Assembly: GCA_028693275.1 (NCBI GenBank)
Contig: JAQUVS010000001.1
Coordinates: 129,206-193,205 of the forward strand
Direction: 5' to 3'
Length of the DNA stretch: 64,000 nt
DNA from: Bacilli bacterium
GTDB lineage: Bacteria; Bacillota_I; Bacilli_A; RF39; UBA660
Part shown: one piece after another, positions 54,979-64,000 of the stretch
Layout of the letters: each line of letters begins with the position of its first letter
Numbering within the stretch: the stretch's first letter is position 1
Program-made: the position numbers and the translations under genes
Notes under the pieces: model-generated
The model's database searches: none
What the model saw: only the letters and a program-made list of their open reading frames with translations
What the model was told of the DNA's origin: nothing

Positions 54979-55935
54979 ATGTTTAATAAGATTATTAATA
55001 TTAATTCAGTTGTTAATAATGAGATTAATAAGAAGACATGTTTGATGCTTGCTAACTCTATATTAATATCAATTGAATTAGATAAATTAACTAATTCATT
55101 ATTCACTGATAATTTATCTTATAAATTAGCTATTAGTGATATTAAGAATAGATATGAAGGAGTATTTGTAGAAGACATATCAAAAAATATGAAATATATT
55201 AATAATCTATTAAATGATGAAGTAAATAAAAGTATTAAGATTAATAAACTTTTATTAAATCATTATAGTAATGATGATTTTACTTTAATGTATTCTTCAG
55301 TAAAAGATATTATTAATAATGAAGATATGTTCTATGTTTACTTGGATGTAACTATTCCTAAATTAATTGATAAAACTAAAACAAAAAAAGATAAAATAAT
55401 TAGTGATAACAAATTATCATCACCATTAATCAATGTTTCTTTAGATAAACTTAATTATAGTATATTAAAGTTATTTATAGAAAAGAGAAGGATTCCTACT
55501 TTTATAGTTGATATGACAGATGAATATTTTAAAACTAAGAAGAATACTAATAATATAATTGGTTACTTTGATAATAGTATTGTTAAAGATAATGTAATTA
55601 TTACAGTTGGTAGTAAAGATCTTTTAAAGAATTATGATAATTTAAGTACTTTAGTAGATAAAGGTATTAATCTTGCTATTAGAGAATTTGATTTTTGTAA
55701 TACTAGTAAGAAGGAATTATCTTATTTTAAATATATGATTGTTGATTACAATGAAAAAGATAGGGATAATAAAATATTATTAGCAAATAATTTAGAAATT
55801 AATGTAATTGTTAATAATGTTAATGATGATGAGTCTAGAAATTCATGTATTAGTAAGGGTGTTAAATTTATTAGAAATAATAAGGACAAGAAAATGAAAA
55901 CTTTTATGGAAATAATGGGTGAAGCAGATGAATAA
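54979..55935 (+). CDS. hypothetical protein, possible divergent EAL-like domain, first gene of the SipW/TasA-like operon
   Basis: LAIREFDFCNTSKKELSYFKYMIVDYNE loosely resembles the EAL DDFGTGYSSLSYLKxLPVDxLKID block. The same frame is open upstream to an RBS+ATG at 54712 with a single TAA at 54787-54789 in between. Confidence 0.4.
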   Translation: MFNKIININSVVNNEINKKTCLMLANSILISIELDKLTNSLFTDNLSYKLAISDIKNRYEGVFVEDISKNMKYINNLLNDEVNKSIKINKLLLNHYSNDDFTLMYSSVKDIINNEDMFYVYLDVTIPKLIDKTKTKKDKIISDNKLSSPLINVSLDKLNYSILKLFIEKRRIPTFIVDMTDEYFKTKKNTNNIIGYFDNSIVKDNVIITVGSKDLLKNYDNLSTLVDKGINLAIREFDFCNTSKKELSYFKYMIVDYNEKDRDNKILLANNLEINVIVNNVNDDESRNSCISKGVKFIRNNKDKKMKTFMEIMGEADE

Positions 55936-56620
55936 TCGCTTAACTGTTACTATTAATGCTAAGAAAATATATCGTAGAAAAGTTTTAATGAGGTTTTTTA
56001 CGGTAGGGCTTTTGGGATTATTACTTATATTGTCTGTAATATATGCTTTAGTATTTGTTACAAATCAAACAGGTAATTTTACTATTTCATTAGATCCAAA
56101 TTTAAAAGCAGAAAAAGGTATAGTTATTTCTCCTAGTAGTGATTTTAAAAAGACACCTTTAACATTAAAAGCAGAAGCACTAGATTACATGGATAATATT
56201 TCTGGTGAATGGATTCCTGATACTGTGACTGAAGTTGAAGGCTCTCATAGTACAAATAATTACTTAGCTTATACATTCTTTGTTAAAAACAATAGTAATG
56301 ATAAAACAGATTATCAAGCTGAAATAGTTGTGAAGTCTGTTATAAGTGGAGTAGATGAGGCAGTTCGGGTAGCTGTTTATTATAACGGCGAAAAAACTGT
56401 TTATGCCAAAAGAAACAAAGTTACTGGCTTACCAGAGGCCGACACCATTCCATTTGTATCTAACCGTTTGGTAATGACAACTAAAAGAGTTGGAATTAAA
56501 CCAGATGAGGTTGATAAATATACAGTAGTCATATGGCTTGAGGGAAATGACCCTGAGTGCATTGATGATATATTGGGAGGTGAAATGAAAATGTTAATGC
56601 AATTGGTAGAAGTAGATTAG
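55919..56620 (+). CDS. TasA/CalY-like SipW-substrate protein, paralog 1
   Basis: N-terminal hydrophobic segment ending in SVIYALVFVTNQT, and the shared C-terminal motif YTVVIWLEGNDPEC. Confidence 0.55.
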   Translation: MKQMNNRLTVTINAKKIYRRKVLMRFFTVGLLGLLLILSVIYALVFVTNQTGNFTISLDPNLKAEKGIVISPSSDFKKTPLTLKAEALDYMDNISGEWIPDTVTEVEGSHSTNNYLAYTFFVKNNSNDKTDYQAEIVVKSVISGVDEAVRVAVYYNGEKTVYAKRNKVTGLPEADTIPFVSNRLVMTTKRVGIKPDEVDKYTVVIWLEGNDPECIDDILGGEMKMLMQLVEVD

Positions 56621-56688
56621 CATTAACAAAGTTTTTTGAATTTAGGGCGCGCTAAATTTAATTCTTAAACGAGAGAAAGAGGGAAAAT

Positions 56689-57597
56689 ATGAAAAACAAG
56701 AGGATAATGTTAGCATTCTTAATGCTACTAGTAACAGCTGTTGCTTTAACTACTGCATCATATGCGTGGTTTACAGCTAATACTAGAGTTCAATTAGGAA
56801 ATATCGATGTTAACGTTCAAGCTAGCAACGGTATTCAAGTTTCTACAGATGCTACAAATTGGAAAGCATCATTAACTACTACTGAACTTAAAGGAGCTGC
56901 ATTTGTAGGTAATACAAATCAATTTCCAAATACATTAAGTCCAGTTTCTACAATTGGTTCTCAAACAACTGGAAAATTTGACATGTTTGTTGGGGAACTT
57001 AATGAAGATGCAACACTAGATGCAACAGCTGCTCCAGCAGAAGTTTCTGGAACAAATGGTCAATACATTGCATTTGACTTATTCTTTAAAGCTGCTACAG
57101 CACAAGATATTTATTTAAATGATGGTTCTGGAATTGATGCAGCACTTGTTGTAGGTACTGTATTAAAAGATACAGGATTAAAATATTCTGCTCGTGTAGG
57201 TTTCTTAGTACAAGGTACTGATGCAACTAATACACCAGCAACAGCACAAGCATTAGCTACTGGTACAAGTACAAACCAATATATTTGGGAACCAAATGCT
57301 GATGAACATACTGCTACAGCTACAGGGTTGGGAGCAAGTGGAATAGTTTCTTATAGTGGATTAAAAGCTATTGGAACTAATCTTAATTTAACTACATTGC
57401 CACCAACTAACTTTGCGACTGTTTTATCAAATACTTCAACTGTAGGTACAGTTCCAAGTACAAAATTATTTACAGTAGGTCCAGGTATTACTAAAGTAAG
57501 AACATATATTTGGATTGAAGGTCAAGATATCGACTGTGAAAACTCTGCTTCTTTAGGTAGTGGTATTCGTACAGTTCTTGACTTTATAGTTAAGTAA
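56689..57597 (+). CDS. TasA/CalY-like SipW-substrate protein, paralog 2
   Basis: SipW-cognate-class signal peptide ..ALTTASYAWFTANT and C-terminal VRTYIWIEGQDIDCEN. Confidence 0.65.
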   Translation: MKNKRIMLAFLMLLVTAVALTTASYAWFTANTRVQLGNIDVNVQASNGIQVSTDATNWKASLTTTELKGAAFVGNTNQFPNTLSPVSTIGSQTTGKFDMFVGELNEDATLDATAAPAEVSGTNGQYIAFDLFFKAATAQDIYLNDGSGIDAALVVGTVLKDTGLKYSARVGFLVQGTDATNTPATAQALATGTSTNQYIWEPNADEHTATATGLGASGIVSYSGLKAIGTNLNLTTLPPTNFATVLSNTSTVGTVPSTKLFTVGPGITKVRTYIWIEGQDIDCENSASLGSGIRTVLDFIVK

Positions 57598-57604
57598 TTA
57601 ATAA

Positions 57605-63206: not shown

Positions 63207-63221
63207 AAGGAGTGTAGATGT

Positions 63222-63797
63222 ATGAATAAAATAAACAAAAAAACTAATCATTTTATTAATATAGTTTTATTAGTTTTAATTATTACTGCATCTACATATG
63301 CTTGGATGTTAACAAATCCATCTACCGGAGAATTAGTTGATTACGAGAGAACATTAATTATTAATTCTAGTTCTGTTAGTGTTGAATTTTATACTTTTAA
63401 AGATGATGAATATATTAAAACTACAAGTGATCCAATTACAACAGAATTACTTGGTCCTGGAATGATACAAAAATATTTATTTAAAATAACAAATAATAAT
63501 TCAACGCCAGCTAGTGTTAATATAATTCTTTCTGATATTACAGGAAATATAGATCTTTTAAAAGAAGTATTTTTAATTGGGGAAAGTAACCCTTTAATAA
63601 ATGAATATAAATTATCATCTAAACTAACTCAAAATCCATCTACACTAAAATATTCTTATATGTTTCATGATAATTTAAGAGTAGAAGCTAATTCTTCTTT
63701 AAATTTATATTGGTATATAGGGATAGATAAATTTGCGTCAAATGAAATTAAAGATACTAACATATCTATTAATAAGATTATGTTTGTAAAACCATAG
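63222..63797 (+). CDS. TasA/CalY-like SipW-substrate protein, paralog 5 (short)
   Basis: ..ITASTYAWMLTNPST and a degenerate C-terminal motif LYWYIGIDKF. Confidence 0.55.
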   Translation: MNKINKKTNHFINIVLLVLIITASTYAWMLTNPSTGELVDYERTLIINSSSVSVEFYTFKDDEYIKTTSDPITTELLGPGMIQKYLFKITNNNSTPASVNIILSDITGNIDLLKEVFLIGESNPLINEYKLSSKLTQNPSTLKYSYMFHDNLRVEANSSLNLYWYIGIDKFASNEIKDTNISINKIMFVKP

Positions 63798-63805
63798 GAG
63801 GTAAA

Positions 63806-64000
63806 ATGAAAAAGAAAATATTATCAATACTAGAGTTTCTAGTAATAATCGTAATAGTATTATTTTGCCTTATGTCAGTAGTTCAAAGGGTTCTTCCTAG
63901 AAATATGAGTTTATTTGGTTTTAGAACTTTTTCAATTATTACAGCATCTATGAAACCTGAGTTAGAAATTGGCGATATTATATTGGTAAAAGAAAAAAAA
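63806..64000 (+). CDS. second SipW-type signal peptidase I (N-terminal part; continues beyond the window)
   Basis: RBS GGAGGT then ATG 63806; a TM helix followed by the Ser box TASMKPELEIGDIILV. Confidence 0.6.
   Translation, partial: MKKKILSILEFLVIIVIVLFCLMSVVQRVLPRNMSLFGFRTFSIITASMKPELEIGDIILVKEKK

Follow-up and report, generated by a model that had tools for sequence, protein, structure and literature searches.

What is a GTPase of the McrB family doing in an operon of secreted, fibre-like proteins? The question is raised by a 64-kb stretch of contig JAQUVS010000001.1 from a Bacilli bacterium (positions 129,206 to 193,205; hereafter the window, in whose numbering all coordinates are given), toward the 3′ end of which a McrB-like and a McrC-like gene lie among genes for SipW-type signal peptidases and TasA-like proteins. 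As set out below, this locus is a real, ordinary member of CoCoPALM, which is named but essentially unexplored. The name comes from a survey of McrBC systems that mentions it in two sentences and defers the analysis (Bell et al., eLife 2024; PMC11090510); the supplements of that survey hold nothing on CoCoPALM, and we found no follow-up paper in the literature. Literature searches likewise returned nothing linking SipW with DUF2357 or TasA-like proteins with an ATPase, and for TasA, McrB and signal peptidase together they returned only an unrelated C. perfringens preprint. What was already known is the name, without a published analysis. We propose, with somewhat better than even confidence, that this CoCoPALM-type operon builds a cell-surface fibre, with GTP driving or gating its assembly, and that the fibre is linked to cyclic di-GMP (c-di-GMP).

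Linkage of the GTPase pair with surface genes

The main evidence comes from 83 related loci, collected from the best relatives of the GTPase. In all 83 a DUF2357 (McrC-like) gene stands 3′ of the GTPase gene, at a median gap of 19 nucleotides (nt), and a gene for an S26-family signal peptidase is present; in 74 the latter flanks the pair directly. At least one TasA-like open reading frame (ORF) lies within 10 kb in 81 of the loci, the two exceptions being truncated contigs, and a YAWF-type protein is encoded no more than 9 kb away in 77 of the 80 loci used for this proximity count. Homologs of the putative major subunit and of the GTPase fall on the same contigs, and exactly the same order of genes as in the window recurs in loci with GTPases 64-93% identical to its own. 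Compact loci also occur, consisting of an EAL-like gene, the GTPase gene, the McrC-like gene, sipW and a small TasA-like gene, with more TasA-like genes upstream. An earlier, sequence-only reading of the window had inferred that the locus is not a simple TasA operon and had suggested checking whether the McrB-like pair occurs together with sipW and TasA-like genes in other genomes; the inference holds, and the counts show the pair to be an integral, conserved part of the locus. The idea of an unrelated, inserted restriction cassette was rejected on the same counts for DUF2357, S26 and TasA-like genes, together with the absence of a nuclease.

GTPase relatives are encoded in at least 585 species-level genomes (one genome scanned per species), mostly metagenome-assembled genomes (MAGs) from gut or rumen, in which the conserved GTPase is locked to TasA-like genes. 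The carriers are labelled as uncultured Bacilli, Mycoplasmatota/Tenericutes, Erysipelotrichaceae, Clostridia, Oscillospiraceae and Acutalibacteraceae, and wherever the name of an isolate or sample gives away its source, that source is gut or rumen material. A search of 2.9 million viral contigs found no relative, and what plasmids hold is related to the GTPase domain alone, with identities not exceeding 39%. One locus (L001, 1-4300) adjoins parB, DUF951, ychF and rpsF-ssb-rpsR, chromosomal housekeeping neighbours that argue against a mobile island.

In the window the ten genes all lie on the forward strand from about 54712 to past 64000, with intergenic gaps of -17 to 68 nt (Table 1), so that the co-orientation and tight spacing noted earlier extend to every one of them. 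The range given at that time, 55919-64000, does contain genes of the locus, but the locus is larger, beginning at about 54712 with the EAL-like gene and extending beyond the window. Co-orientation, small gaps and a sole terminator-like hairpin just 5′ of the block make it look like one operon, and the block, from about 54712 to some point past 64000, is apparently transcribed as a unit. A scan of 54400-64000 found no terminator-like site inside the locus, and the upstream hairpin likely marks the 5′ boundary of the operon. A promoter scan gave candidates at 54656-54683 and 54944-54973, at a site frequency not above chance.

Table 1. Features of the locus, in window coordinates (TM, transmembrane helix; aa, amino acids; ↓, predicted cleavage site)
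Feature	Position	Strand	Characteristics
Terminator-like hairpin	54540..54574	+	only such site in 54400-64000; ends upstream ATP-binding cassette (ABC) transporter gene
g0, divergent EAL-like cytoplasmic protein, first gene of operon	54712..55935	+	Pfam EAL E = 0.045, below cutoff
g1, bitopic membrane protein	55919..56620	+	basic cytoplasmic tail, one TM (29-47), TasA-like ectodomain ending VIWLEGNDPEC
g2, probable major fibre subunit	56689..57597	+	Sec signal ending ASYA↓WFTAN, beta-sandwich body, motif YIWIEGQDIDCEN
sipW1, archaeal/ER-type (SipW-type) signal peptidase I	57605..58219	+	TIGR02228 68.4 bits; TM 13-31 and 160-178
Membrane-anchored McrB-like GTPase, NxD branch	58260..59891	+	543 aa; PDB McrB 6hz4 E 5.7e-6; NCBIfam McrB E 4.4e-6
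McrC-like partner, cytoplasmic	59900..61018	+	372 aa; DUF2357 N-terminal domain (E 1.4e-11); long C-terminal helix 324-371
g6, minor TasA-like subunit	61027..62139	+	signal IASYA↓WFSN, motif RIWIEGND, extra C-terminal small beta domain of ~70 aa
g7, minor TasA-like subunit	62148..63206	+	signal ISSYA↓WFSN, motif KVWLEGGD, C-terminal small beta domain
g8, small TasA/AbpX-like protein	63222..63797	+	191 aa; signal TASTYA↓WMLTN, PGM motif
sipW2, second SipW-type signal peptidase	63806..64000	+	65 aa up to window end; serine box ITASMKPE

Proteins of the locus

The GTPase consists of a conserved N-terminal region, a transmembrane helix (residues 62-80), a basic stretch (KKYIRVRK), a coiled coil at about 85-125, a variable acidic linker and an AAA+ domain of the AAA_5/McrB type; in profile searches residues 80-120 match coiled coils. 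One transmembrane helix followed by basic residues would, by the positive-inside rule, place the catalytic domain in the cytoplasm. The family shows no variation in Walker A (GISGTGKTS), Walker B (LDEMN), NNDDS or R399. In the window the signature reads GTINNDDS, which aligns without gaps to the E. coli NTAD in a hidden Markov model alignment; the motif alone is ambiguous, and the family pattern decides. Among the 150 best representatives of 1.8 billion clusters it is N-x-D-[DE]-S, with a variable position 2 and a conserved D3, so that we read the GTPase as a shortened NxD form; its preference for GTP is predicted from membership in the McrB family. An NCBI protein labelled ‘MAG: Bacilli bacterium’ is identical to the GTPase of the window, for which a separate exact look-up returned no record. 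Homologs remain 60-70% identical across MAGs labelled as Bacilli and Clostridia, with long invariant stretches, and this conservation, together with the intact catalytic motifs, suggests an active enzyme and not a relic. The pair had been described from the window as McrB-like ATPases and a membrane AAA+ machine: the McrB likeness and a transmembrane helix are there, but the enzyme belongs to the McrB GTPase family (NxD) and is not a generic AAA+ ATPase.

When nine proteins of the locus were scanned with PADLOC, the model PDC-M26A (‘phage defence candidate’) matched GTPase residues 227-350 (E = 2.9e-38) and no other gene of the locus was matched; candidate defence systems thus contain the closest relatives described for the GTPase domain. 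The nearest relatives outside the clade are coiled-coil McrB fusions of 450-900 amino acids (aa).

For the N-terminal module, profile searches of Pfam, NCBIfam and PDB gave no match to FtsB/DivIC, and a comparison with E. coli FtsB by hhalign returned a probability of 4.5%. Residues 113-131 (within 58260-58679) hold the segment EK(E/D)xILAMKVSQLGLKPGE, which is almost invariant in 20 distant orthologs, closes the coiled coil and is followed by the hypervariable acidic linker; only its ending, LGLKPGE, resembles the FtsB C-terminal MVKPGE, and hhalign was not significant. A 646-aa homolog in locus L003 (P0014, 8001-9941) carries an internal AAA+ duplication of about 130 residues (DEWVVDIIPNSW...FVPAYVGTG), which may be a genuine tandem duplication or may have arisen during assembly of the sequence.

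In the McrC-like partner no transmembrane segment is predicted and the PD-(D/E)xK nuclease domain is absent. DUF2357 is the sole domain in all 120 homologs listed, hence the nuclease has been lost from this family. A fold search with the protein recovers McrC, namely its N-domain only, and the family profile matched nothing among PDB sequences. In Clostridia-labelled loci (L016, L017, L022, L028, L036, L071 and others) the McrC-like product is longer, at 450-895 aa as against about 370 aa, and the first gene of the same loci encodes a true HD+EAL or EAL protein, not the degenerate form. The 848-aa McrC-like product of L003 weakly matches the crescentin-rod model (Rod_CreS), which suggests a coiled-coil extension.

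Both signal peptidases recognized earlier at 57605 and 63806 are indeed archaeal/SipW-type S26 enzymes. The first passes the TIGR02228 cutoff of 51.85 bits, matches Peptidase_S26 (E 1.4e-5) and holds the catalytic boxes SPSMSGT, THRIV and GDANNEVD; the second, whose 65-aa fragment matches the SipW/TIGR02228 models at E~1e-6, passes the cutoff through a full-length ortholog (76.3 bits) from a locus with a 93% identical GTPase. With the Bacillus SipW model sipW1 scores 93.5 bits, and since it and the sipW2 ortholog both fall below the equivalog cutoff of 190 bits, we call them SipW-type and not SipW orthologs. In relatives, the gene 3′ of the second peptidase encodes a BspA-type leucine-rich repeat (LRR) protein of more than 1600 aa with the signal QSFSWMYDEY and a TasA-like N-terminal region; this giant protein is likely a tip adhesin, and in the present genome its gene would probably sit just beyond the window end.

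The candidate substrates were described as five proteins sharing two motifs. In the six-frame translation of all 64 kb, YAW[FM] occurs exactly four times, always N-terminally, as SYAWF in the products of 56689 (g2), 61021/61027 (g6) and 62148 (g7) and as STYAWM in that of 63222 (g8). For W[ILV]EGxD the count is likewise exactly four, each near the C-terminus, in the products of 55919 (g1), 56689, 61021 and 62148; in g8 the motif is degenerate (W-Y-I-G-I-D). Three proteins thus carry both motifs, but the remaining two carry one each, g1 being devoid of the signal motif. Their kinship stands for four of the five by pairwise BLAST, where g1, g2, g6 and g7 are mutual paralogs (E 5e-9 to 4e-4, with g6-g7 at 5e-9), and for g8 through iterative searches in the 83 loci, whose shared match sets draw it into one set; the profiles of g2 and g8, however, align over the signal peptide only. 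The small g8-type protein is present in 73 of the 83 loci.

The basic tail, the single strong transmembrane helix and the absence of a cleavage-type motif lead us to read g1 as the probable uncleaved membrane anchor or base subunit. Its helix contains VIYALVFVTNQ, and the architecture holds across 51 orthologs. The proposal that all five paralogs are SipW substrates was therefore rejected: g1 looks uncleaved and only four proteins carry the signal motif. Over g2, the putative major subunit gene, the GC content is 0.33-0.35 (56000-57500) vs 0.20-0.27 in the flanking genes, in a region that is AT-rich throughout (0.20-0.35), and the g2 protein is rich in Ala, Thr and Gly; both traits would fit an abundant structural protein. 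The g6 frame has an alternative start at GTG 61021, and its ortholog in L084 has 370 aa, equal to the product from ATG 61027; residues 322-361 of g6 give weak matches to CHB_HEX_C/DUF4073.

None of the five paralogs matched Peptidase_M73 (TasA/camelysin) in a Pfam scan or TIGR04088 (SipW-cognate signal peptide) in an NCBIfam scan at E<=0.1, so that the profile check by which the sequence-only reading had hoped to place them in the TasA/camelysin family came out negative. Elsewhere, one of 32 g8-type relatives matches Peptidase_M73 (E 0.006), and the g8 family profile finds AbpX (9sj2) at E 0.0095 and TasA (5of1) at E 0.45. A monomer model of g2 (302 aa) is a beta-sandwich (predicted local distance difference test, pLDDT, 81; predicted template modelling score, pTM, 0.81) in which residues 19-33, directly after the predicted cleavage site, are disordered; in a Foldseek search of PDB its top match was the TasA fibre, at a non-significant E of 0.029. 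These fold and profile searches tie the paralogs weakly to the TasA superfamily, in which their membership is not established. The signal common to g2, g6, g7, g8 and probably the LRR adhesin would end (S/T)(Y/F)A↓W(F/M). The cleavage region of TasA is TWA↓AFND, which SYA↓WFTAN of g2 and (S/T)YA↓WF(S/T) of the locus resemble by eye only.

Several compact loci (L009 at 1045-3203; L010, L024, L027, L031 and L039 at ~14.0-14.8 kb, minus strand) hold extra small TasA-like genes, some upstream and others on the opposite strand just downstream, with the signal endings SYAKY, SYESY and TYARY and no NCBIfam match.

The first gene, g0, belongs to the system as had been supposed: its EAL-like family is found in 55 of the 83 loci, always in first position, and is missing or undetected in 28. 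In compact loci the EAL-type gene lies directly against the GTPase gene or runs into it, at a spacing of -13 to +18 nt, and in Clostridial loci the same position is held by true EAL or HD+EAL proteins (E down to 1e-46). With 13.5 bits against the Pfam EAL cutoff of 31.3, g0 of the window does not reach the gathering score, and where DDFGTG and EGVE are expected at the catalytic positions it reads REFDFCNTS and NNVNDDES; it is probably degenerate. An hhalign comparison of the Bacilli-type g0 family with the true EAL family (probability 75%, E 2.6e-5) points to moderate homology with the EAL proteins of the same operon position. No transmembrane segment is predicted in g0, and against PDB the sole match of its profile was a designed TIM barrel. 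The gene is interrupted at codon 26 by an in-frame TAA (54787-54789) where the relative L084 has TTA; the L084 ortholog is intact, with 407 aa and an AGGAGG ribosome-binding site in front. The longest uninterrupted g0 frame of the window is 54979-55935 (318 aa). The gene may have decayed into a pseudogene, its translation may restart at ATG 54979, or the stop may be an error of sequencing or assembly.

Beyond the locus, three overlapping or abutting genes (512, 151 and 180 aa; 49583-52103) lie upstream of the ABC transporter, and the translation of the 512-aa protein has no obvious features.

Assembly, gating and rival explanations

How, then, might a cytoplasmic GTPase serve a surface fibre? 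In the reading that we favour, g2 as the major subunit, g6, g7 and g8 as minor subunits and probably the giant BspA-type LRR adhesin would be exported by Sec, and the two dedicated SipW-type peptidases would cleave them after (S/T)YA. The freed N-terminal strand would insert into the next subunit, as in TasA, threads and Abp pili, and polymerisation would take place on g1, the putatively uncleaved, membrane-anchored paralog. Beneath the assembly site we would place a ring of the NxD McrB GTPase, held by its transmembrane and coiled-coil tether, together with the nuclease-less McrC-like protein as an activator and the EAL-type protein, by analogy with McrBC, a hexameric ring activated by McrC. 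GTP hydrolysis, possibly under the control of c-di-GMP, would drive or gate subunit delivery, processing or insertion across the membrane. That assembly is energised we infer by analogy, and the link to c-di-GMP is possibly provided by the first gene, whose Clostridial counterparts encode genuine EAL or HD+EAL proteins and whose product here is divergent and EAL-like.

Several points weigh against this proposal. No dedicated NTPase (nucleoside triphosphatase) figures in what has been published on TasA, thread and AbpX filaments, so that by analogy one would not expect assembly to need energy. A search of the loci for a conserved, polytopic platform protein brought up only further TasA-like ORFs. 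An hhalign of the g2 (302-aa) family with the g8 (191-aa) family aligns the signal peptide alone, and one of the g8 family with TasA gives a probability of 4.5%. Moreover, g0 of this genome carries a premature stop, and the carrier genomes listed are all MAGs, with no filament of this kind seen.

The most ambitious form of the proposal would be a hitherto unrecognised class of GTP-powered filament machine, at work in a large share of uncultured gut Bacilli and Clostridia, in which a membrane-tethered, hexameric, ex-McrBC GTPase without the nuclease mechanically drives the assembly, perhaps also the retraction, of an LRR-tipped, donor-strand TasA-like fibre under the control of c-di-GMP; we advance it tentatively, as a possibility with the balance against it. 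If true, a motor of defence would have been turned to surface biogenesis, giving the first energised member of the TasA superfamily. If the GTPase either drives or gates assembly, the view of the TasA-type filament superfamily would change, a motor of restriction enzymes would have been reused at the cell surface, and uncultured gut Firmicutes would prove to have a major, little-studied means of adhesion that includes a BspA-type LRR adhesin.

The rival that survives best, though we consider it rather unlikely, is a regulatory switch and not a motor: an inside-out device made up of the EAL protein, the GTPase and the McrC-like protein, functionally similar to LapD/LapG, would respond to c-di-GMP or to the nucleotide state in the cytoplasm and, by way of the transmembrane helix, turn the adjacent SipW peptidases or the g1 anchor on or off, so gating the display of fibre or adhesin while assembly itself is spontaneous. 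Such a switch would suit an EAL-type gene that opens the operon in at least 55 of the 83 loci and is packed against the GTPase gene in compact ones (-13 to +18 nt), that exists in true EAL and HD+EAL versions, and whose version in the window is degenerate and receptor-like. It would also suit the papers on filaments of the TasA superfamily, which describe extracellular donor-strand polymerisation and mention no ATPase, and the failure to find a platform protein in the loci. Yet g0 is missing or undetected in 28 loci and interrupted in the window while the GTPase pair is never missing, a c-di-GMP-binding motif is not demonstrated, and a GTPase conserved throughout at 60-70% identity, with long runs that do not vary, looks more like a mechanochemical machine than a switch. 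Such extreme conservation favours a machine, whereas TasA-type fibres, reported to assemble by themselves, and the missing platform protein favour the switch.

A further alternative dispenses with the filament: the SipW-processed paralogs would be a surface coat, matrix or adhesin set (for example S-layer-like, in small, reduced-genome gut Bacilli) and the GTPase pair would act in secretion or turnover. The want of any TasA or camelysin profile match and the giant BspA-LRR adhesin in the operon would agree with it, but the segment after the cleavage site is disordered in the monomer model, as expected of a donor strand, and the set of one anchor, one major subunit, several minor ones and a tip-like adhesin mirrors the Tafi and AbpX loci; we regard it as improbable. 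Finally, that the McrB/McrC-like pair is an anti-phage or restriction module merely lodged in a fibre operon, or one coupling infection sensing to surface remodelling, is very improbable indeed, for although the GTPase domain is of the McrB family, matches PDC-M26A and has coiled-coil McrB fusions of 450-900 aa as its nearest outside relatives (plasmid-borne ones carry no annotation beyond AAA family ATPase), neither the partner nor any neighbouring gene supplies a nuclease, no second protein is matched by PADLOC, the gene order with SipW and TasA-like genes is fixed in 74-83 of the 83 loci across distant taxa, the setting is chromosomal (one relative adjoins parB, rpsF, ssb and rpsR), and viral contigs are devoid of it.

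Comparison with known systems

The sipW operons tapA-sipW-tasA of Bacillus subtilis, sipW-calY of B. cereus and sipW-bsaA of C. perfringens have one peptidase and one to three substrates, and none of them is known to include an NTPase. Like the locus, they place a SipW-type S26 gene beside beta-sandwich substrates whose signal ends (S/T)(W/Y)A↓xF, and TapA, an accessory or anchor paralog, can be likened to g1. The locus differs from tapA-sipW-tasA in that its proteins do not match Peptidase_M73 or TIGR04088 and its peptidase reaches 93.5 of the 190 bits set for SipW. With the Sulfolobus 0406 threads, the AbpA/AbpX bundling pili and the Tafi pili, which belong to archaeal or other lineages, the similarity is marginal; the published texts on these loci mention no cytoplasmic NTPase.

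McrBC and CoCoNuT share with the locus the AAA+ GTPase family, an intact catalytic site and a partner with the N-terminal domain of McrC. In contrast to them, the locus has no DNA-binding domain and no PD-(D/E)xK or HEPN nuclease, its GTPase is tethered to the membrane, and the partners of the pair are secretion and surface genes, not methyltransferases or nucleases. Type IV and Tad pili offer a functional analogy, as they too bring together a hexameric cytoplasmic NTPase, a signal peptidase of their own, and pilins, major as well as minor, that have an N-terminal motif in common. The families are unrelated, however, with McrB-type AAA+ in the locus vs PilB/PilT and S26 vs prepilin peptidase; pilins retain an alpha-helix, whereas the subunits of the locus are beta-sandwiches with a cleaved Sec signal, and the locus is without a platform protein.

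The closest comparison is CoCoPALM itself, described (PMC11090510) as a large clade in which the NxD GTPase is joined to an FtsB-like domain made up of a transmembrane segment and a coiled coil; the clade is associated with signal-peptidase genes, and both its McrB and its McrC homologs bear coiled coils. Three of the four published features are found in the window, namely an NxD McrB GTPase, an adjacent DUF2357 gene and signal-peptidase genes; as for the fourth, the transmembrane helix (62-80) and the coiled-coil-like region (80-120) are present and homology to FtsB was not reproduced. The TasA-like YAWF substrates, the anchor paralog, the EAL-type first gene and the giant LRR adhesin do not appear in the published text. 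What is new here is the component list with its motifs, that is the YAWF signal, WxEGxD, the anchor paralog and the EAL-type first gene, which make CoCoPALM testable.

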